A stretch of 64,000 nucleotides of DNA, taken from positions 40,172-104,171 of the IMG/VR virus record IMGVR_UViG_3300042891_000377, one strand, 5' to 3'. The translations under genes were made by a program, and so were the position numbers. A model generated the notes under the pieces. That model made no database searches. It saw only the letters and a program-made list of their open reading frames with translations, and had not been told where the DNA came from. Of this stretch, positions 6,086 to 44,613 are shown piece after piece. How positions within the stretch are numbered: the first letter of the stretch is position 1; every line of letters starts with the position of its first letter. Source of the stretch: a virus.

Positions 6086-7177
6086 ATGAAACTATTGCTT
6101 GCTTTAGCGTGCTTAGTAGCAACTACTAACGCATGGGCAGGCATTGGAACTGTAAGCGATACTAAAGGTACCGCTTGTTCAATAGAGCGTGCTAAACAGA
6201 CCCTGCCTGGCAACAAAGGTGCGACCATAGAAAGTATGGATACCTATGTTACAGGCGGCTGTGTTAGCAATATCACATTTAAAGATGACACCAAAGTAAA
6301 AATAACAGAAAACAGTCGACTAATGATAGACGACTTTGTTTACGATCCTAAAAAATCCGACGCAGGTAAACTAGCTCTTAAAGTAGGTATGGGCACAGTA
6401 CGTTATGCCTCTGGACAAATTGCTAAAAACAATCCACAAAAGGTAGATATTAAAACACCCACAGCTAGTATTGCTGTTCGCGGTACAGACTTTAACATGA
6501 CTGTAGACGAAGCAGGACAGAGTTTAGTTATTCTTGTGCCTAGCTGTAAAGATGGTGAAAAGATTAAAGAATACGAGCTAGAAGAAAACTTATGTAAAGT
6601 GGGCAAGATCGAAGTCAGCACACTGGCTGGTGTAGTTACCTTAGACAAAGCATTTGAAGGTACGTATGTAACCAGTGCTAACATGATGCCTAGTCCTCCA
6701 GCTATTATTAACACAATTGAAAGTAAGATTGGTAACAGTCTTATTATCACTCGCCCACCCGAAATTGTCAAAGCTAGTAAAGAAGCAGGTAAAAGCAAAC
6801 GTGATCTAGAACAAGAAGAACTAGAAGCTATTCAAGCAAGTCAACTTGCTCAACGTATAGCTAAAGAAGGTGAAGCTAAAGCTGTAGTGTTGCCTTATAG
6901 CTTTGACAGTGGTAAATCAGGATGTAATCCGGCAATCAATGTCTGCGTTAAATGGGAAAATCCGGATGGTGAAAGCATACAGGCCAAAGGTCGAGGTATA
7001 GCGTTTCGTCAAAGTGAAGATCACTATGCAGAAGTTAAAACACAGGGCTACGAAAGTAATACGTCAATTGAAATAATTCACGATGATAATATTGCCTCAG
7101 CTACAATTGGTTCGGGCGATCCAGGTGGCAATGTAGTGCGTATCAAACAGAATTCTGGAGTGTTAAGACGACAATGA
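6086..7177 (+). CDS. Secreted FecR-domain protein
   Basis: Signal peptide; ITFKDDTKVKITENSRLMID; TPTASIAVRGTDF (FecR signature). Confidence 0.8.
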   Translation: MKLLLALACLVATTNAWAGIGTVSDTKGTACSIERAKQTLPGNKGATIESMDTYVTGGCVSNITFKDDTKVKITENSRLMIDDFVYDPKKSDAGKLALKVGMGTVRYASGQIAKNNPQKVDIKTPTASIAVRGTDFNMTVDEAGQSLVILVPSCKDGEKIKEYELEENLCKVGKIEVSTLAGVVTLDKAFEGTYVTSANMMPSPPAIINTIESKIGNSLIITRPPEIVKASKEAGKSKRDLEQEELEAIQASQLAQRIAKEGEAKAVVLPYSFDSGKSGCNPAINVCVKWENPDGESIQAKGRGIAFRQSEDHYAEVKTQGYESNTSIEIIHDDNIASATIGSGDPGGNVVRIKQNSGVLRRQ

Positions 7178-8301
7178 AACGGCTCCTTGTAATCTTATTA
7201 TTAGTTTGCTCCAATACCTGGGCCGCAGGACTTGCTGGACTTAATTATCAGAACTATGCCGCAGGTGGTGCTATGCCATCATATACGCAAGATGCTAATG
7301 GAAACATCACTAATCGCACACTACTATCAACTGGAACTGTGAATACGGTGGGATTAACTACTAGTAGTGGAGCAGGCTTGCCTACTCGCAGTGATGGATT
7401 TATAGTTCGTTTCTATGGTTACATCAATATAGAAACAGCAGGTACATATTACTTTGGCGGGCAAGCAGACGACGGTATCCGTATTAAGATTAATAACATA
7501 TCTGTGGTTAATAGTTGGATAGAATCTGGCGGCGCATTTAGAGAAGGCAGCATTACTTTGTCAGCAGGAGTTGTTCCGGTAGAAGTAATGTATTACGAGA
7601 ACGGCGGTGGACAAATGGTTAACTTCCAATGGTTTATGAACGGCTATTGGCAGATTGTACCTACAGCGTCGATAGCTACAGATACTACCTATTGGGCGCC
7701 TGCGGCTCCTGTACTATGTTGCGGCGGCAGTTCGTCAAGTTTTAATGCTAGTCCATCTAATGTAACAAAAGTACAGTCATACGCCACAAGGAATACCAAT
7801 GACAGTCAGGTGTACATAGACCAAATTGGTAATGATAACGAGATCACAGTTAACCAAACAGGTACTAAAAATAACTACACAGAATACAATAGTAGTGGTA
7901 GTTTCAATACCGTTAATATCTCACAAACTGGTAATAGTTCAACAACAGCAAACTACGTAGAACTAAATGTCAACGGTGATAGTAATATAGTAAATCTAAC
8001 GCAGCAGAGTACAGGTGGTGCCAAGGGTATCTACGCTACAGTTAACGATGACAATAATAATGTAACAGTCTTACAGAAAGACGGTGGTAATGCTTACTTA
8101 AACTTAAACCTAAGTGGCGGTAATAAAACTGTAGACATAACGCAACAAGGCAGTGCTGCACACATGGCTGACATTACTCTAACTGGAGCAGGTGCTAGAA
8201 GTTTAAACTTAAATCAGCAAGGTAGCACACAACAGTTTTACAGTATTAATAGTAGTTGCGCTAGTGCCTGTCAGGCAATAACAGTAATACAAGGACAATA
8301 A
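7174..8301 (+). CDS. Secreted PA14-domain plus curlin-repeat protein
   Basis: PA14 motifs GTYYFGGQADDGIRIKIN and YYENGGG; C-terminal QxGxxN repeats. Confidence 0.75.
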   Translation: MKRLLVILLLVCSNTWAAGLAGLNYQNYAAGGAMPSYTQDANGNITNRTLLSTGTVNTVGLTTSSGAGLPTRSDGFIVRFYGYINIETAGTYYFGGQADDGIRIKINNISVVNSWIESGGAFREGSITLSAGVVPVEVMYYENGGGQMVNFQWFMNGYWQIVPTASIATDTTYWAPAAPVLCCGGSSSSFNASPSNVTKVQSYATRNTNDSQVYIDQIGNDNEITVNQTGTKNNYTEYNSSGSFNTVNISQTGNSSTTANYVELNVNGDSNIVNLTQQSTGGAKGIYATVNDDNNNVTVLQKDGGNAYLNLNLSGGNKTVDITQQGSAAHMADITLTGAGARSLNLNQQGSTQQFYSINSSCASACQAITVIQGQ

Positions 8302-9946: not shown

Positions 9947-11812
9947 ATGAAGTTAAAATCAATTAAAGTAGCATTAAGTTTAGTTTTAGCATTACCAGCA
10001 GTAGCTTTCGCAGCAGCTGACCAAGAAAAAGCAATGAAAGACGCTAACAACTGGGTTGGCCCACGTGGTCAATACGACAACCAAGGTTACAGTGCATTAG
10101 CACAAGTTAACAAAGGTAACGTTAAAGGCCTTAAAGCTGCTTGGACATTCGCTACCGGTGTAAACCGTGGCCACGAAGGTTCACCAGTAGTTGTTGGTAA
10201 CATGATGTACGTTCACACAGCGTTCCCAAACAACGTTTACGCTCTTGACTTAAACGACAATCAAAAAATCGTTTGGTCTTACTTCCCAAAACAAGATCCA
10301 TCAGTACAAGCTGTATTGTGCTGCGATAACGTTTCACGTGGTCTTGGTTACGGCGACGGTAAAATCTACCTACAACAAAACGATGGTAACTTGGTTGCTT
10401 TAGACGCTAAAACTGGTGCTAAAGTATGGTCAACTTTAATCAACGATCCAAAAGTCGGTGCTACTAACACTAATGCTCCACACGTGATCAAAGATAAAGT
10501 ACTGACAGGTTGTTCAGGTGCTGAATTTGGTGTTCGTTGCTTTATCGCAGCTTACAACTTAAAAGACGGTTCATTAGCATGGAAAGCATACTCAACAGGC
10601 CCTGATGCTGAAATGTTAATCGGCGAAGGCTTCAACAAAGATACACCTGAGTACAGCGCACTATCAGTTTACCAAGACGTAAACGGTGGTAACAAATTAG
10701 GTGGTTCTTTCAACACTATCCCTAATGACAAATTAGTAATTGGTCAAAAAGAGTTAGGCACACGTACATGGTTGAAACCACAAGCAGTTAAAGATGGTTG
10801 GCAACATGGTGGTGGCTCTGTATGGGGCTGGTGGCCGTATGATGCTCGTACAAACTTGGTTTACTACGGAACAGGTAACCCATCAGTTTGGAACCCAGAT
10901 GTACGTCCAGGCGACAACAAATGGTCTATGACTGTTTTCGCTCGTGACTTAGACACTGGCGTTGCAAAATGGGGTATGCAAATGACTCCACACGATGAGT
11001 GGGATTACGATGGTATTAACGAAGTAATCTTGTTCGACAAAGGTGGTAAAACATACGCATGGCACCATGACCGTAACGGTTTTGCTTACACTTGGAATGC
11101 TGGTAACGGTAAATTAGTTGCTGCAGAAAAAGTACACCCATTCGTTAACTGGGCAACTGGTGTTGATTTGAAAACAGGCGTGCCTAACAAATTGGCTACT
11201 GCTTCAACTCACCAAGATTACAATGCAAAAGGCGTTTGTCCAGCTGCTTTGGGTACTAAAGACCAACAACCAGCTGCGTACTCACCAAAAACTGGTTTAA
11301 TTTACACTCCATTGAACCACGTATGTATGACATACGAGCCAGTTGAGTCTAAATACGTTGCAGGTCAACCATGGGTTGGTGCTACATTGACCATGTTCCC
11401 AGGTCCAGACGGTGTAATGGGTGGTTTCGGTGCTTACGATCCAATGACAAACAAAAAAGTTTGGTACAACAAAGAGAAATTCTCTGCTTGGGGTGGTGCT
11501 TTAACAACTGCTTCAAACTTAGTATTCTTCGGTACTTTAGATCGTTGGTTTAAAGCTGTAGATGCATCATCAGGTAAAGAACTATGGAAATTCCAAGTTG
11601 GTTCTGGCGTGATTGGTAATGCATTCACATACGGTCACAAAGGTAAACAACACGTTGGCGTGCTATCAGGTATCGGTGGCTGGGCTGGTGTGGCGATGAA
11701 CCTTGGTATGACTAACCCAACAGACGCTTTAGGTGCTGCTGGTGGTTATGCTGAATTAACAAAATACAACGCGGCTCCTGGCGGCGGTGCATTAACAGTA
11801 TTCAGTCTTTAA
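9947..11812 (+). CDS. xoxF: Lanthanide-dependent PQQ methanol dehydrogenase XoxF (probably the Methylophilaceae XoxF4 type)
   Basis: Signal peptide; vicinal CC in LCCDNVSRG; metal ligands in GAEFG and GTGNP; DEWDYDG has the extra Asp that marks Ln-binding MDH (MxaF has DYAG). Confidence 0.93.
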   Translation: MKLKSIKVALSLVLALPAVAFAAADQEKAMKDANNWVGPRGQYDNQGYSALAQVNKGNVKGLKAAWTFATGVNRGHEGSPVVVGNMMYVHTAFPNNVYALDLNDNQKIVWSYFPKQDPSVQAVLCCDNVSRGLGYGDGKIYLQQNDGNLVALDAKTGAKVWSTLINDPKVGATNTNAPHVIKDKVLTGCSGAEFGVRCFIAAYNLKDGSLAWKAYSTGPDAEMLIGEGFNKDTPEYSALSVYQDVNGGNKLGGSFNTIPNDKLVIGQKELGTRTWLKPQAVKDGWQHGGGSVWGWWPYDARTNLVYYGTGNPSVWNPDVRPGDNKWSMTVFARDLDTGVAKWGMQMTPHDEWDYDGINEVILFDKGGKTYAWHHDRNGFAYTWNAGNGKLVAAEKVHPFVNWATGVDLKTGVPNKLATASTHQDYNAKGVCPAALGTKDQQPAAYSPKTGLIYTPLNHVCMTYEPVESKYVAGQPWVGATLTMFPGPDGVMGGFGAYDPMTNKKVWYNKEKFSAWGGALTTASNLVFFGTLDRWFKAVDASSGKELWKFQVGSGVIGNAFTYGHKGKQHVGVLSGIGGWAGVAMNLGMTNPTDALGAAGGYAELTKYNAAPGGGALTVFSL

Positions 11813-17060: not shown

Positions 17061-17175
17061 TTTAGACCTTTCATAAAAGTTAACTTACAATGTATTTAAC
17101 GCCGATAAACTATATCTATTTATTTTTGGTAGAATTTTGATTGACGAAAATTCCAAAAGAGTAAATAATAGTACT

Positions 17176-19200
17176 ATGATGAAAAATAAACTTAAAAAAC
17201 TCCTAGTCAGTCCGTGGACTGCGTTAATTACATTAGCTGTTATTGTAGTAGTAATCCTACAAGGACCTACATTCGTAGAGTCGGTTAGACTTAGATACTT
17301 TGACACACTGATTAGTGGCAAGGCTCCTACAGAAAATAATATCTATACTGTAAACATAGATGAAGCAACATTAGACAAGTATGGGCAATGGCCATTTAAG
17401 CGTGACAAGTACGCAGACCTAATTGATGACCTGTACAAACATGGCGCTGGCCTAGTTGTTTGGACTGTTATGATGCCAGAAGCAGACCGTCAAGGTGGCG
17501 ATGCGGCCTTGGCATTAGAGTTAGAGGACCATCCAGTTATCCTTACTAACATGCCCAGTGAAAAGTCTAAGAACATCCCACGTAAACCAGGCAGTGCTGT
17601 TATTGGTGACGAGTACAGCGACACAATTATCACCTATCCGGGTATCATTGCTAACATTCCAGAACTAGAACGTAATGCCGCTGGTGTTGGTATTGCTAAC
17701 ACATTCCCAGAGGTAGATGGTGTTAATCGTCGACTACCATTGTTCGTTGGTTATGACAATAACGTATATCCAAGTATTCCGTTAGAAGTATTACGTGTTA
17801 TATCGCAAGACTCAACATTCCAAGTTAAACTAAATGAATTTGGTGTTGAGAAAATGCGCATACCAAGTTTCCGTCCTATCAGCACAGATAGCTTAGGTCG
17901 TATCTGGGTAGACTGGAGTCAAAAGTCAACACAGGTATCAGCAGTCAACTTGCCTACAGACTTTGGTGGTGCTGTGGTTATTGTAGGCCTAAGTGCCGCA
18001 GGTTTAGCTAACCCAGTGCCAACTAGTATCGGTAGCGTATGGCCACAAGATATGCAGGCCGCTGTTATTGGTACGTTAGCTAACAACGTAAACATTGAAC
18101 GTCCATTCTGGGCAGACAATGCTGAACTGTTGGCTCTTATTGTTATCTCACTTATTATTTTAATCTTGAGCCGTTGGGTATATGTTGGCCTAGGAGTTGG
18201 CGTTGTATTGCTTGCGGCAATTACACCTGCAACAATGTATGCGTTTGCGCACTATAACTTCTTGTTTGATGCCATTGTGCCCACAGCAGGCGGTGTACTG
18301 GTTATGCTACACGCTTATGGTGTTAAGTTTATTAGCGAGTTCTTACAGAAACAACAGATCAAGAAACAATTTGGTAGCTACGTTAACCCTACTATTGTTG
18401 AACGCTTACAAAAGAATCCAGAGCTGATTAAACTAGGCGGCGAACGTAAAGAACTTTCAATTGTTATGACTGACCTACGTGGCTTCACAACACTTGGCGA
18501 ATCGTTTGGTGATGATGTAGAAGGACTTACACAGATCATGAATGACTACATGACAGCATTGAGTATTCCTGTGCTAAAGAATGATGGTACTTTAATTAAG
18601 TTTATCGGTGATGCTAGTTTACACGTACACGGTGCTCCGTTGGATGATGCTAATCACGCTAAGACTGCGGTGCGTACTGCACTCGAAATGATCAAAGCCA
18701 TTGAAGACTTTAACGTAGAACTTGTTGCTAGTGGCCGGCCACCGGTTGGTATGGGTGCTGGTGTTAACACAGGTGAAACCTTAATTGGTAACATTGGTGC
18801 TAAGAGCAAGTTTGGTTATGACGTTCTAGGTGACAGTGTAAGTACTGCGGCACGTTTAGAAGGACAAACTAAGTCATATGGTGTGTTACTAATCATCGGT
18901 CCTAAGACTGCTGAATACTGTAAAGATGACTTCCCTGTAGTATGGTTAGACAACATTGCCGTTAAAGGTAAAACTATTGGCTTAGATATCTACACAGTTG
19001 GTCGTACTAATCTTTATATGCACGAGGAGTATCGTAAAGAATATACTCGTGGTAATTGGGGCAAGGCTATTGTATGGGCTAAAAAATTAGTCAACAACGA
19101 TGATGTTGATATTAAACATTACTATGAACTAATGATTGAACGTATGGAACAGGGTGTTCCTGCAAACTGGGATGGCACTTATCACGCCACTTCAAAATAA
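17176..19200 (+). CDS. CHASE2-domain class III adenylate cyclase
   Basis: NIDEATLDKYGQWPF (CHASE2), 3 TM helices, TDLRGFT, KFIGDA, YDVLGDSVSTAARLEG; TAAATA at 17162. Confidence 0.9.
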   Translation: MMKNKLKKLLVSPWTALITLAVIVVVILQGPTFVESVRLRYFDTLISGKAPTENNIYTVNIDEATLDKYGQWPFKRDKYADLIDDLYKHGAGLVVWTVMMPEADRQGGDAALALELEDHPVILTNMPSEKSKNIPRKPGSAVIGDEYSDTIITYPGIIANIPELERNAAGVGIANTFPEVDGVNRRLPLFVGYDNNVYPSIPLEVLRVISQDSTFQVKLNEFGVEKMRIPSFRPISTDSLGRIWVDWSQKSTQVSAVNLPTDFGGAVVIVGLSAAGLANPVPTSIGSVWPQDMQAAVIGTLANNVNIERPFWADNAELLALIVISLIILILSRWVYVGLGVGVVLLAAITPATMYAFAHYNFLFDAIVPTAGGVLVMLHAYGVKFISEFLQKQQIKKQFGSYVNPTIVERLQKNPELIKLGGERKELSIVMTDLRGFTTLGESFGDDVEGLTQIMNDYMTALSIPVLKNDGTLIKFIGDASLHVHGAPLDDANHAKTAVRTALEMIKAIEDFNVELVASGRPPVGMGAGVNTGETLIGNIGAKSKFGYDVLGDSVSTAARLEGQTKSYGVLLIIGPKTAEYCKDDFPVVWLDNIAVKGKTIGLDIYTVGRTNLYMHEEYRKEYTRGNWGKAIVWAKKLVNNDDVDIKHYYELMIERMEQGVPANWDGTYHATSK

Positions 19201-35118: not shown

Positions 35119-35739
35119 ATGTCAACTTTAGTCCCAATGGTAGTAGAACGTACGAGTCAAGGCGAACGTAGCTATGACATTTATTCACGCTTACTTAAAG
35201 ATCGTATCATCATGTTAGACACTGATGTCAACGAGCATACTGCTAGTTTAATCGTAGCGCAGATGTTGTTCTTAGAAAGTGAAGCACCAGAGAAAGATAT
35301 CTTATTCTACATCAATAGTCCGGGTGGTAGTGTAACTGCTGGCTTGGCAATTTATGATACAATGCAGTTTATCAAATGTGATGTATCAACTATTGTACTT
35401 GGACAAGCATGTTCGATGGGTAGCTTCCTAGCGCAAGCAGGTGCACCAGGCAAGCGTATTGTTCTGCCAGAAGCACGTACTATGATTCACCGTGTTAGTT
35501 CCGGTACCCCCGGTACACGTGGTAGTGTACACGTACAAGACCTACAGTTTGAAGATGCTAAACGTAGCTTTGAAGAAAGTGTGCGTATTAACAAACGCTT
35601 AACAGAACTGTATGCACGTCATAATACTGCTGGTAAAACGTATGACGAACTTTATGAAGCAATGAAGTTTGACACATTTTTAAGTGCAGACGAAGCTGTT
35701 GCCTATGGTCTAGCAGACGAAGTGATTACTAAACGTTAA
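35119..35739 (+). CDS. clpP: Clp protease proteolytic subunit
   Basis: [29 protein letters not shown] (Ser), MIH (His). Confidence 0.95.
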
Positions 35740-36809
35740 TGACCAAATTATGCCTTGACTTTATCACCGAATCAACACAGCCATTATTTACTGTTTTAAT
35801 TGATGGCTGTGTAGTATCGGCAGTAGTAAACGATAAAGAATTAACTATATCAGCCGATTTACAATACGGATTCCATACACTGGCTATTTCAGTAACCAAT
35901 CCATCGTCACCTATTGTATTCACTGATGCAAAATTAGATGGAGTTAGTTTCCGACAAACGTTATATACAATGTTTGCTAATAAGCAATGCAAAAGACAAA
36001 CAACAACTTTAACAATCACTGATAATATATTATATCTTCCATTTATTAATCCGATAGCGGTATGGATTGCATCCTGCGCAGAAAAAATTCCTGCAAAATT
36101 ATATGCGCATAGTTTGTATGATGAATTTGAAATTTATTATCCCGAATCTATAGTTATTCCTACTAGTTTTCCAAAAATACTACAAGATTATATGTTGTGT
36201 AATACAGACTTTTATATGCATGCTAAATCATTATTATTAGATCCGTATTATAACGCAGAAGTACCGTATGCAAAACTTAGTAAATTAACATATGATGATA
36301 CTGCATTGTATACTGAATTATTTGCAAATTTAGAATTCTTTAAGAATAATGCACGTACACCAGCGCAGAGCAAATATAACAAATTAGAAACAAGTAAATC
36401 TGACTGGAGAGTGTTTGATTTTATTCTTGAAAAAAACATATTGCCCGAGGCACAGTTTCCTGCCCTCTATAAGTTATTGCATGATCTTAATTTAGATGAA
36501 ATATTACATGGATTTATAGGTATACTTGGCCCAGGTGAATACATAACCCCGCACGTTGATCGTTACGAGGGTATGGAATTTATAATAGAAAAATATGGTG
36601 GTTGTGGACAGCTATATATTCCTGTGAACTTTAAAGAAGGCAACTATTTTAAATTTAATAATATTGGATTAGTTCCGTTAGATGGTCCAATGTTAATTAA
36701 TACTCAACATTTTGCTCATGCATTAATAAACAATAGTAATGAATATCGATTTGCAATAGGTATACACGGATCTCGACTACATATTACAAATAAAGATGAT
36801 AATGGCTAA
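35739..36809 (+). CDS. Hypothetical protein with C-terminal Asp/Asn beta-hydroxylase-like domain
   Basis: LGPGEYITPHVD...INTQHFAHALINNSNEYR. Confidence 0.55.
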   Translation: MTKLCLDFITESTQPLFTVLIDGCVVSAVVNDKELTISADLQYGFHTLAISVTNPSSPIVFTDAKLDGVSFRQTLYTMFANKQCKRQTTTLTITDNILYLPFINPIAVWIASCAEKIPAKLYAHSLYDEFEIYYPESIVIPTSFPKILQDYMLCNTDFYMHAKSLLLDPYYNAEVPYAKLSKLTYDDTALYTELFANLEFFKNNARTPAQSKYNKLETSKSDWRVFDFILEKNILPEAQFPALYKLLHDLNLDEILHGFIGILGPGEYITPHVDRYEGMEFIIEKYGGCGQLYIPVNFKEGNYFKFNNIGLVPLDGPMLINTQHFAHALINNSNEYRFAIGIHGSRLHITNKDDNG

Positions 36810-38109
36810 CTCTAACGTATTCTGTAATACACCTTGGTATGAGGCTCACATCTATTGGGATGGCAGCTTTGGTACCTGTTGTCAAGAGAGTAGGAAATTA
36901 TACGCAGAATCTGAAACACAATACAACATTAAAACAATGTCTTTAGCAGAATGGTTTAATAGCAGACCTGCTAGAGAATTTCGTATGGATATGTTTAGCA
37001 ACGAAGGCACTGTTACGTGTAGTCAATGTTATAACGAGCAAGGGGTAAGTGGTACAAGTCGTAGACATCGCAGTAATCAAAAAAGTGTAATTTTTACAAA
37101 GCAGGCATTTGGTGAAAGTTTCAAACAAAGTCCAGGTTATAAACAGTTCATGTTTAGTAAAGGTATGGATGGTATGACTAACACTATGCCAATTGATCTA
37201 CATATTGATTTAGGTAACTATTGCAACTTAGCTTGTAAGATGTGCTGGTCTGGTGCAAGCAGTAAAATTGCAACTCAATATGTCAAGTGGGGGAATGAAG
37301 AACATAAACAATATCTTGGTAGTGATTGGACTAAAGATACAGAAACGTGGAATAGATTCTTAAATGAATTACTAACCATTCCTAAACTAAAAAATATACA
37401 TTTAATGGGCGGTGAAACTTTACTAACAGGTCAATTTGAAGAATTAATTGACTTTATGACTGCACATAATAGATTTGATGTATGCTTTAGTTTTGTCACT
37501 AACGGAACAAAGTTTAATGAATCACTAATTAACAAACTAAAAAAATTTGCACGAGTAGGCATCGAAGTAAGTATAGAAACTGTAACTGCGCATAATGATT
37601 ATGTTAGGCAAGGTACTAATACAGCAATAGTATTAGAAAATATACAAAAATATATACAGCACTGTACTGATACGTCAGTGTCGGTCACTATACGTCCTGC
37701 TATAAGCGCATTAACAGTTGGTTATTATTATACGTTATTAGAATATTGTTTAGAACATAAGTTGATGATTAAAAGTTTGCTCGTAACAACTCCAAAATAT
37801 TTAGACATTAAGGTGTTGCCGTATGCAATTAAACAAAACTATCTGCAACACTATACAACTATAGTAGATCAGCTAGCGGACATTGATATTGATATTGATT
37901 TTAACGAGAGTGATGCAGGTAATTATAAAAAATCTATTAAACAACAGGCTATGCAAATGATCAATATACTTACACCTGTATTGATAGATAACGAAGATGG
38001 CTTACCAGAATTAGTTACTATGTGCAAAAAATGGGATACTGAATATAAATTCGATGCAATTACATTATATCCAGAATTAACCAAGGTGTTTGATCAGTAT
38101 GGATACTAA
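36802..38109 (+). CDS. Radical SAM protein with N-terminal SPASM/twitch-like domain
   Basis: CNTPW..GTCC..CSQC; CNLACKMC; MGGE; TNGT. Confidence 0.85.
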   Translation: MANSNVFCNTPWYEAHIYWDGSFGTCCQESRKLYAESETQYNIKTMSLAEWFNSRPAREFRMDMFSNEGTVTCSQCYNEQGVSGTSRRHRSNQKSVIFTKQAFGESFKQSPGYKQFMFSKGMDGMTNTMPIDLHIDLGNYCNLACKMCWSGASSKIATQYVKWGNEEHKQYLGSDWTKDTETWNRFLNELLTIPKLKNIHLMGGETLLTGQFEELIDFMTAHNRFDVCFSFVTNGTKFNESLINKLKKFARVGIEVSIETVTAHNDYVRQGTNTAIVLENIQKYIQHCTDTSVSVTIRPAISALTVGYYYTLLEYCLEHKLMIKSLLVTTPKYLDIKVLPYAIKQNYLQHYTTIVDQLADIDIDIDFNESDAGNYKKSIKQQAMQMINILTPVLIDNEDGLPELVTMCKKWDTEYKFDAITLYPELTKVFDQYGY

Positions 38110-40079: not shown

Positions 40080-40198
40080 ATAGTTGATATATGCTATCTA
40101 GTATATGCTGGATAGCATATACTGAGGTATGTTAGTTAACACACGATTTTCGGCCTCGTCCGTGTATAATTAATAGTATACACAGAGGAGAAGTTAAA

Positions 40199-40441
40199 AT
40201 GAAAGTAAGCGTTTTATTAACAGCAGTATTATTAGCAGTTGCAAGCATTGCATCAGCTGAAGAAGTTAAACAGAACACTAACACTCAACATCAACTATCA
40301 AAACGTCCTTATGCAGCGCCTGCTGTAGATAAGGAAACATTTGATGGCGCGGTTGTTGATAAAAAAGAAGTAGAGAAACCTACACATTTAAATTTACACA
40401 TGTTGGGTAAGCGTCCGTTTATGGAAAAAGCGACTGACTAA
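40199..40441 (+). CDS. Small secreted protein with duplicated H-x-L-[SG]-KRP-[YF] motif
   Basis: GAGGAG RBS, signal peptide, HQLSKRPY and HMLGKRPF. Confidence 0.75.
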   Translation: MKVSVLLTAVLLAVASIASAEEVKQNTNTQHQLSKRPYAAPAVDKETFDGAVVDKKEVEKPTHLNLHMLGKRPFMEKATD

Positions 40442-40447
40442 AGAAAT

Positions 40448-40797
40448 TGTTGTAGCCGTAAGGCAAAGTTGTAAAGTAAGGCATGTTGGACGGCGGTTCG
40501 ATTCCGCCCAGGTCCACCAAAAGTATATTGTCACTAAGGTCCCGTAAGGATTATGTCTTTGGCGAGATAGTATGCTTCTGATGGGCCTGACCAGGTTTCG
40601 ACAGCGTGAGATAGGATAACAACTCAACACGTGGGGTCACGTAAAATACAAATCTTGTAAATGCAAAAACATCTACAACTGGTGCTGTAAAAGTATCTAT
40701 GGGTCGTGGCTTCCGCTTCGGTTCTGCTACTCGTACAGCAACGTTTGCCTAAGAAACAAACACCACGGGGTAACTATACCTTGTAATCAAAAATAGT
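40448..40797 (+). ncRNA. ssrA: Circularly permuted (two-piece) tmRNA gene; outer ends approximate
   Basis: Acceptor piece GAC-GGCGG-TTCGATT-CCGCC-CAGGTCC-ACCA ends 40519; hairpin intervening segment 40520-40582; coding piece starts GGGCCTG at 40583 and pairs with CAGGTCC including G3:U70; tag frame 40663-40752. Confidence 0.9.
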
Positions 40798-40798
40798 A

Positions 40799-40827
40799 GA
40801 AAGCTCACTTCGGTGGGCTTTCTTTTT
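40799..40827 (+). terminator. Intrinsic terminator after tmRNA
   Basis: GAAAGCTCAC-ttcg-GTGGGCTTTCTTTTT. Confidence 0.8.
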
Positions 40828-40829
40828 GC

Positions 40830-40858
40830 TTGACATTTTGATTAACTGAGTATATAAT
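40830..40858 (+). promoter_or_regulatory. Sigma70-type promoter
   Basis: TTGACA-17-TATAAT. Confidence 0.8.
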
Positions 40859-42102: not shown

Positions 42103-42621
42103 ATGGTGCATACTGAAATTAATCAGCAGATACAGGATAGACGCCTACATTCTGGCAATGACGACGATACCTATTATAATGAATCCTTATATGGTTATGC
42201 CTGCGAAAACTTTACAGATCCGTATGTACTATTCAAATTGGCTATCTACGGATATTATATGAAACGGTATAAATGGACTAAAGTTGAAGCAGATTGGTTT
42301 ATTGATACCCAAAAGGAAAATTCAGTAAGTTGGACCGACGGTGTTCAAACATACTATTATGATTGGGGTAAAGGTAAAAATAAAGTAACAGATGATTATC
42401 TACACTATCCTAACCTAGATCATATTATTCCAGCTAGTATTGGGGAGAAACCAGATAACAGCCCGCAAAATTTCCGTATCCGTTGCCGTAGATTAAATGA
42501 AAATAGAGGCAATACCAACACAGATAAAGAACGTCGTGCTACTATAATCGATATGTATCTCGATATGGGTATAGAAGAACGTCGATCATTATTAAATTAT
42601 CTATCAAATCTCTTGACATAA
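42103..42621 (+). CDS. HNH-endonuclease-like protein
   Basis: NLDHIIPAS...NSPQNFRIRCRRLNENRG. Confidence 0.6.
   Translation: MVHTEINQQIQDRRLHSGNDDDTYYNESLYGYACENFTDPYVLFKLAIYGYYMKRYKWTKVEADWFIDTQKENSVSWTDGVQTYYYDWGKGKNKVTDDYLHYPNLDHIIPASIGEKPDNSPQNFRIRCRRLNENRGNTNTDKERRATIIDMYLDMGIEERRSLLNYLSNLLT

Positions 42622-42704: not shown

Positions 42705-44613
<1,909 letters not shown>

Follow-up and report, generated by a model that had tools for sequence, protein, structure and literature searches.

The 64-kb window analysed here (64,000 nt, positions 40,172 to 104,171 of the IMG/VR virus record IMGVR_UViG_3300042891_000377) probably carries a working, circularly permuted transfer-messenger RNA (tmRNA) gene belonging to a large T4-like phage. 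The 29-residue peptide tag predicted for this RNA would act as a sequence-specific signal, and the rescue of stalled ribosomes would depend on factors of the host.

In the whole window ARAGORN called a single gene, that of a permuted tmRNA on the plus strand (40427-40843) with the tag AKTSTTGAVKVSMGRGFRFGSATRTATFA*. Two models of Rfam 15 agreed with this result: RF04321 (tmRNA_permuted) scored 83.9 bits against a cut-off of 47 (E 1.3e-14), with a match that spans the full model, and RF01850 (beta_tmRNA) scored 84.3 bits against a cut-off of 84 (E 6e-24). The gene order is permuted, with the piece that holds the T arm and the CCA end upstream of the piece that holds the 5' acceptor strand and the coding sequence. 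An unconstrained two-strand fold gave the acceptor stem, the T arm and helix 2 (coordinates in Table 1). The initial annotation, made from the sequence alone, had described a permuted two-piece tmRNA in a phage, and ARAGORN and the two Rfam models bear this out. The T-arm/CCA piece in first place, the acceptor stem with the G3:U70 pair, helix 2 between the pieces and the hairpin formed by the intervening spacer, all of which it had listed, were each recovered as well. The fold of the spacer hairpin (-17.1 kcal/mol, z -2.4) was equalled by 4 of 200 shuffled sequences. For the terminator that closes the coding piece the fold had a z-score of -4.5, its stem covaries among relatives, and a perfect TTGACA-17-TATAAT promoter of the next gene (40830-40858) follows directly.

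Our first family search used the back-translated core of the tag, which makes it circular for synonymous variation, and the conclusions on the reading frame therefore rest on searches without the tag sequence. A pattern of the tRNA-like part alone matched at least 80 viral contigs, and a pattern restricted to the resume context and the post-tag hairpin, with the tag unused, matched 40 viral and 73 metagenome contigs. The relatives recovered in this way have tags that share the same frame and vary mostly at third positions, and the resume context GUAAAU-GCA is invariant among them. Tags of class A, to which the tag of this phage belongs, follow the pattern A-[K/N]-[A/T]-[N/S]-T-x3-VKVSMGRGFRF-x5-7-ending. 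Among five distinct core sequences from the tag-independent searches, the seven sites that vary are without exception third positions with synonymous changes, whereas by our own count only about 24% of random changes in the core codons would be synonymous. In 22 distinct class-A coding sequences, likewise tag-independent, the ratio of nonsynonymous to synonymous polymorphism (pN/pS) was 0.26 for the core (pS 0.355) and about 1.0 for codons 1-8. Replacements within the class-A core, which can be written as [V]K V [S/A/T] M [G/N] [R/K] [G/N] F R F, are few and conservative. An exchange of Arg and Lys via CGT and AAA takes three base changes, and one such exchange, within the TFA sub-group, separates the tag of this phage (L001; relatives are likewise given L numbers) from its closest relatives L014 and L048.

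The tag region folds no better than shuffled sequences (z -1.1), and RNA structure was rejected on this ground as the reason for the conservation of the core. The use of a different short frame, which the initial annotation had named as an observation that would speak against its assignment, was also considered: the frame starting at ATG 40661 (MQKHLQLVL*) was rejected, as its length and sequence differ in relatives while the GCA frame varies only synonymously in the core. Because core variation is mostly synonymous, pN/pS is low and the fold of the tag region does not exceed that of shuffled sequences, we take the GCA frame to be right and the peptide to be the conserved entity. The comparisons indicate that the tag core is kept as a peptide under purifying selection, and the invariant context together with this peptide-level selection supports the view that the frame is translated. 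The resume codon GCA and the tag frame of the initial annotation thus stand, as does its description of a tag without acidic residues that ends in TFA.

For the RNA itself we compared 28 distinct relatives over the acceptor stem, the T arm and helix 2a, and 30 distinct sequences over the post-tag pseudoknot. In each of the 28 relatives the acceptor stem (seven pairs) and the T stem (five pairs) consist entirely of standard pairs. Both partners have changed in acceptor pairs 4-6 and in four pairs of the T stem, and G3:U70 does not vary in any of the 28. The seven pairs of helix 2a are 99% paired and show compensatory changes; the closing C-G, for example, is U-A in L085 and L086. Compensatory variants were also seen in helix 2b (CUCUU/AAGGG in L037, GCUCU/AGAGU in L070) and in the region of helix 2c, where GUUGU/ACAAC is replaced by GCUGU/ACAGC in L101, L104, L107 and L118. 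The inserted GNRA hairpin reads GCC-GCAA-GGC in L088 and is missing from L037 and L070, and the relatives have spacers of 26-155 nt, without conservation of their sequence. The pseudoknot-like element that had been noticed behind the tag was confirmed: in 29 of the 30 sequences a tetranucleotide located exactly 10 nt further downstream pairs with the loop of the post-tag hairpin, compared to 3.8 expected from shuffles. The covarying loop pairings include ACUA/UAGU, GUUA/UAAC and AGUA/UACU, and a U-A pair of the stem alternates with C-G. Since compensatory changes occur in the stems and the pseudoknot pairing is far above the level of shuffles, the RNA architecture is under selection. A pairing between the 5' tail and the leader before the resume codon, which was suggested by the two-strand fold, was rejected: it shows no covariation, whereas GUUG/CAAC covaries.

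Some relatives depart from this scheme in single elements. L106, L107 and L111 have CCC or CCG in place of CCA at the acceptor end and would therefore need repair or addition of CCA. In L087 (3700-4060; also in L090, L096 and L097) the same tag core is combined with the T loop GGCAGAA instead of UUCGAUU and with an altered D-loop analogue, AGAUUCGAU. The tmRNA of L087, which lies on a complete 329-kb genome, was missed by ARAGORN, and the Rfam alpha model outscores the beta model for it. Some family members found by RF04321 thus escape ARAGORN, which matters for annotation. The assignment to a subtype is also affected. The match of the gene studied here to RF01850 is just at the cut-off, and its alignment is poor over the terminal hairpin and at a number of pairs in helix 2; L070 scores 97.7 bits with this model, and the L087 group fits the alpha model instead. 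Because close relatives by tag score better with the alpha model, the beta subtype label is loose.

Most permuted tmRNAs in the viral contigs, some of them in complete phage genomes of about 160 kb, have ordinary 10-residue tags of the form ANDxxxALAA. In a subset the tags are longer, with 23-33 residues, and can be grouped into several classes. The last three residues of 70 distinct long tags are LAA (38), VAA (15), VLA (5), TFA (3), LAV (2) or ALV (2), and AFA, EFA, VMA, VAV and FAA occur once each. The ending is always small and non-polar and otherwise variable; the core is fixed. TFA is found in this phage (the tag ends in TATFA), in an identical metagenome copy (L204), in L014/L048 and in L197, and two other lineages have AFA or EFA. 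The tag is no one-off oddity, but a member of a family in which most relatives end in ALAA or AVAA. Its length of 29 residues, compared to the usual 10, was confirmed; as an oddity it does not hold, being within the published range of 8-35 residues (PMC8012679). The (A)LAA signal for ClpXP, which is typical of tmRNAs but, to judge from the tags of Mollicutes, not strictly defining, is replaced here by TATFA. Because all endings of the family are non-polar, TFA is probably still a degradation signal.

All contigs in which the tag family has been found so far are viral or metagenomic. The core motif had no match in one genome each of 185,579 bacterial and archaeal species, and five matches of a looser core pattern in the same genomes included no tmRNA. 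Deposited phage genomes gave no match either, be it to the tmRNA gene with blastn (50,697 genomes) or to the downstream 402-residue open reading frame (ORF) with tblastn. These distributions suggest that the tag family is specific to one jumbo-phage lineage. Other classes of long tags are built on the same RNA scaffold (ANADTFDF.AMSFTGNTV...ALAA; ..EVMTF[VT]WDLPANESRYALAA; ..SFKFSGKGVKFSS.. ending in VLA). Each of them is conserved as a peptide, with a pN/pS of 0.19-0.48 for the ANADTFDF class (class B), and none has ClpP or GroEL neighbours.

The surroundings of the gene are those of a phage. The window is part of a 104-kb virus record with a CheckV completeness of 19%. Besides tail-fibre and virion proteins it encodes GroEL, a tryptophan halogenase and a T4-type DNA ligase whose best matches come from large myophages of Proteobacteria. 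The same tag core occurs in a relative whose genome is complete (329 kb, with terminal repeats), and more than 20 viral contigs share a conserved phage gene order around the tmRNA. The tail-fibre, virion and ligase genes and the record itself bear out the phage location given in the initial annotation, and the lineage is one of large, T4-like jumbo phages. The window also encodes a pyrroloquinoline quinone (PQQ) methanol/ethanol-type dehydrogenase, FecR and PA14/curlin-repeat proteins and a CHASE2 adenylate/guanylate cyclase (9947-11812, 6086-8301 and 17137-19200). These genes hint at a methylotrophic proteobacterial host; the nearest clusters to the XoxF-like protein are from Pseudomonadota only and give no finer host level.

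Genes for a protease and a chaperonin accompany the class-A tmRNAs. In this phage clpP lies about 5 kb upstream of the tmRNA gene. Among loci with enough flanking sequence, ClpP was found upstream in 9 of 9 class-A loci, compared to none of 40 loci of other classes, and GroES-GroEL downstream in 10 of 10 class-A loci, compared to none of 53. A ClpA-type protein of 770 residues (TIGR02639, 830 bits over the full length, below the equivalog cut-off of 993) is encoded in 5 of 5 larger class-A records, in 0 of 5 records with other long tags and in 0 of 5 complete phages with short tags. In the relatives its gene is located about 47 kb downstream of the tmRNA, a distance that lies beyond the end of the 104-kb record analysed here. 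SmpB was not found in this record or in five relatives, the complete 329-kb genome included, and Lon was not found in this record; as the record is a fragment, the negative results for it are weak.

From these data we propose the following route. The precursor would be transcribed, probably together with the small gene upstream, and end at the terminator (40798-40823). Host tRNA enzymes would cut it into an acceptor piece (~40438-40519) and a coding piece (40583 to ~40825), and the acceptor stem and helix 2 would join the two. Host alanyl-tRNA synthetase would charge the RNA via G3:U70, host SmpB would bring it to stalled ribosomes, and translation would resume at GCA 40663, adding the 29-residue tag to the stalled products. 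Processing, charging, delivery by SmpB and tagging are expected from established tmRNA biology. For the fate of the tagged products we tentatively suggest that the core is a recognition element for a partner brought by the phage, the likeliest candidate being a ClpA-type unfoldase with ClpP; we regard this as possible rather than probable. A phage factor that reads the core is suggested because of the gene content, with ClpP here and ClpA in relatives. Degradation of the rescued fragments would then be under the control of the phage, and a ClpX-type LAA ending would be free to drift, here to TFA. In its strictest form, with the VKVSMGRGFRF-type core as a private degradation signal of phage ClpA-ClpP that is independent of host ClpX or SspB, the proposal is likewise possible rather than probable; it would explain the drift from LAA to TFA, AFA, EFA and VLA in several sub-lineages.

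Several observations weigh against this reading as a whole. At the position of the pseudoknot upstream of the resume codon, fold and alignment gave a simple hairpin only, with no supported second stem, and a promoter scan found no sigma-70 type promoter directly upstream of the tmRNA. The filter for class A permitted only residues already observed, which lowers the core pN slightly. No ClpA gene (AAA_2) was found in this record, a fragment estimated to be 19% complete, and at a distance of about 47 kb ClpA and the tmRNA are not part of the same operon. Finally, class A is a single phage lineage, so that the co-occurrence with Clp and GroESL does not consist of independent events and may reflect shared ancestry.

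Four other explanations have to be weighed. The main rival, about as likely as the reading by phage ClpA-ClpP, is that the tmRNA is functional and its tag is read by host proteases, either by ClpXP/ClpAP via the non-polar C-terminus or else by Lon or Tsp. The long middle part would then be a spacer or the site of a host adaptor (e.g., SspB), and the phage would boost rescue while it degrades host mRNA. Most members do end in ALAA or AVAA (LAA in 38 and VAA in 15 of the 70 distinct long tags), the start A-N/K-A/T-N/S-T resembles the canonical ANDE start of short-tag phage tmRNAs, the phage relies on host SmpB, and the long tags of Mollicutes that end in AFA are read by host Lon (PMC9382460). 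However, the core occurs in none of the bacterial species genomes searched, and a host adaptor would have to read a sequence that its own tmRNA never writes; moreover, the C-terminus, which is read by ClpX, is the least conserved part in class A. An improbable alternative is that the tag spares or repurposes products, e.g., by offering GroEL or some other partner a beta-hairpin-like handle, or by serving as a localisation signal. The TFA ending without the LAA signal would fit this, as would the genes for GroES and GroEL immediately downstream and the alternation of hydrophobic and basic residues around a turn-like G-[R/K]-[G/N] triplet, as read from the core sequences. Against it, all endings of the family are small and non-polar, as C-terminal degradation signals generally are; truncated products would hardly be of use, and no partner was identified. 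For this reason, i.e., because every ending is non-polar, sparing is less likely than degradation or another sequence-specific use; of the earlier suggestion that the RNA may redirect or spare stalled products, redirection remains plausible in view of the phage ClpP and ClpA in relatives, whereas sparing loses ground.

A decoy RNA, which would sequester SmpB or alanyl-tRNA synthetase of the host and thereby block its trans-translation while tagging nothing, is very unlikely. As a precedent, PMC11915505 cites a tmRNA-like RNA of phage DS6A that lacks a coding part and inhibits the cell's own tmRNA in E. coli, but in the present family the tag frame is intact and under selection as a peptide, and the resume context, the stop codon and the post-tag pseudoknot are all conserved. 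Most remote of all is an origin from host DNA, as the remnant of an attachment site or by contamination of the assembly. tmRNA genes are common integration sites of prophages, which often bear 3' fragments of them (PMC9004378); the gene studied here, however, is complete with both pieces, the bacterial genomes searched do not contain its tag family, and its place within a phage gene order is conserved in more than 20 viral contigs, among them the complete 329-kb genome with terminal repeats. We therefore retain the reading of a phage tmRNA whose tag would serve as a sequence-specific signal.

Table 1. Elements of the predicted tmRNA gene and neighbouring protein genes (window coordinates).
Feature	Position	Strand	Evidence or remark
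ClpP (phage)	35119-35739	+	Pfam CLP_protease 219 bits; NCBIfam NF001368 255.8 bits vs cut-off 249; Ser, His, Asp motifs
5' tail of acceptor piece	40438-40454	+	block UAAAGAAAUUGUUGUAG kept across relatives, upstream sequence not
Helix 2c	GUUG 40449-40452 x CAAC 40625-40628	+	fold, family alignment, covariation
Inserted hairpin GCC-GUAA-GGC, GNRA loop	40455-40464	+	three-way junction in helix 2; two-strand fold
Helix 2b	AGUUGU 40467-40472 x ACAACU 40619-40624	+	two-strand fold, compensatory variation
Internal loop AAAGUAAGG between 3' strands of helices 2b and 2a	within 40467-40488	+	
Helix 2a	CAUGUUG 40482-40488 x CAGCGUG 40602-40608	+	fold, covariation
T arm GGCGG, loop UUCGAUU, CCGCC	40492-40508	+	Rfam alignment; all five pairs 100% paired
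Acceptor 3' strand CAGGUCC, discriminator A and encoded CCA	40509-40519 (ACCA 40516-40519)	+	end of acceptor piece
Acceptor stem, 7 bp between pieces, G3:U70 included	GGGCCUG 40583-40589 x CAGGUCC 40509-40515	+	two-strand fold, covariation
Intervening spacer, 63 nt, one long hairpin, presumably processed out	40520-40582	+	fold
Start of coding piece: acceptor 5' strand GGGCCUG, D-loop analogue GGUUUCGAC (40594-40602), helix 2a 5' strand	40583-40608	+	Rfam alignment, covariation, fold
Internal loop, helix 2b/2c strands, hairpin at pseudoknot-1 position, A-rich leader ending in GUAAAU	40609-40662	+	Rfam alignment, fold, family alignment
Hairpin ACGUG-GGGU-CACGU at pseudoknot-1 position, 5 bp	40629-40642	+	Rfam alignment, two-strand fold
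Predicted tag frame, resume codon GCA 40663, 29 codons, stop UAA 40750-40752, encoding AKTSTTGAVKVSMGRGFRFGSATRTATFA	40663-40752	+	ARAGORN
H-type pseudoknot 3' of tag: hairpin GGGGUA-ACUA-UACCUU (40767-40782), loop ACUA (40773-40776) x UAGU (40794-40797)	40767-40797	+	
Intrinsic terminator closing the coding piece	40798-40828	+	11-pair stem, then T run
GroES	42705-42998	+	Cpn10 110.9 bits
GroEL	42976-44613	+	PHROG chaperonin GroEL, E 7e-173

Some features of the neighbourhood deserve mention in their own right. An ORF of 80 residues with a signal-peptide-like start (40199-40441, plus strand) stops 0-5 nt before the conserved tmRNA block and is kept upstream of the tmRNA in L037, L057, L070 and L086 (41-56% identity); it is probably co-transcribed with the tmRNA. 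Upstream of this ORF, an 11-bp perfect inverted repeat (TATATGCTATC ... GATAGCATATA, 40088-40121) and a TATAAT hexamer without a good -35 region (40165-40170) are the sole candidate control elements for the unit of ORF and tmRNA, and no T4-type TATAAATA was found near the tmRNA. The interval between clpP and the tmRNA (35739-38109, plus strand) encodes an Asp/Asn-hydroxylase-like ORF and a radical SAM/SPASM enzyme. The same slot in relatives holds radical SAM genes of only 23-65% identity (27% in the closest relative L048), and it looks like an exchangeable cassette for peptide modification. On the other side, a 172-residue ORF with a weak HNH-endonuclease signal (42103-42621, plus strand) is located between the 402-residue ORF and groES. 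It is present in L037 and L057 and in none of the other relatives, and it may be a mobile insertion.

Two-piece tmRNAs are known from phages, with 53 among 133 distinct phage tmRNA structures (PMC9004378), and tmRNAs of huge phages were already published (PMC7162821). The list of carriers in the initial annotation (alphaproteobacteria, some cyanobacteria and a few betaproteobacteria) is therefore incomplete, since it omits the phages already described. The closest published cases are those of aquatic phages, i.e., the OM43 phage Melnitz, pelagimyophages and cyanophages (PMC9004378), which share with the present phage a complete permuted ssrA gene, a large myophage of aquatic type and the lack of a phage SmpB. 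Melnitz also has curli-type genes, reminiscent of the FecR and PA14/curlin domains found here. The Melnitz gene is of alphaproteobacterial type and linked to a glutamine riboswitch, whereas the gene described here has a beta-type score and a 29-residue tag and lies between clpP and groES-groEL. With the betaproteobacterial two-piece tmRNA (RF01850; in general RF04321) it has the gene order, the acceptor stem with G3:U70, the T arm and a long helix 2 in common, as well as the resume context UAAAU-GCA and, in the place of pseudoknot 1, a simple hairpin. In contrast, helix 2 is shortened here and has an extra GNRA hairpin, and the tag, with its TFA end, has three times the length of a usual one of 10 residues (ANDxxxALAA).

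In E. coli LAA is the key determinant for ClpX (PMC9382460); the free ending and fixed core of class A are the reverse of this arrangement. The ssrA tags of Mollicutes are long, end in NYAFA and are mainly read by Lon (PMC9382460), so that length and an x-F-A ending in place of LAA are common to both. This is a resemblance only: there is no sequence similarity, phage and host are of proteobacterial type here, and the relatives have genes for ClpA and ClpP rather than for Lon. Since the AFA tags of Mollicutes go together with Lon, a change of the tag can accompany a change of the protease, and in view of these endings and the known range of lengths neither length nor ending of the tag is unprecedented. 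In jumbo phages, ClpP, ClpA or ClpX, and ClpS were described as features of patchy distribution (Iyer et al. 2021, PMC7824862). tmRNA does not come up in that survey, and neither a fixed clpP-tmRNA-groESL order nor a lineage-specific tag is described in it. In the published literature we found nothing on this tag family or on the clpP-tmRNA-groESL arrangement. What is new here is thus the tag family restricted to phages and the fixed clpP-tmRNA-groESL order, while the two-piece phage tmRNA itself was already known.

tmRNAs of phages are usually listed as translation accessories. In the lineage described here selection on the tag as a peptide is clear, and the tag travels with phage genes for a protease and a chaperonin. 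If the core is indeed a signal for phage ClpA-ClpP, tag and protease would form a natural degradation pair that works independently of that of the host. The system may thus offer a testable case of a virus that decides on the fate of stalled-ribosome products as well as on the freeing of stalled host ribosomes.

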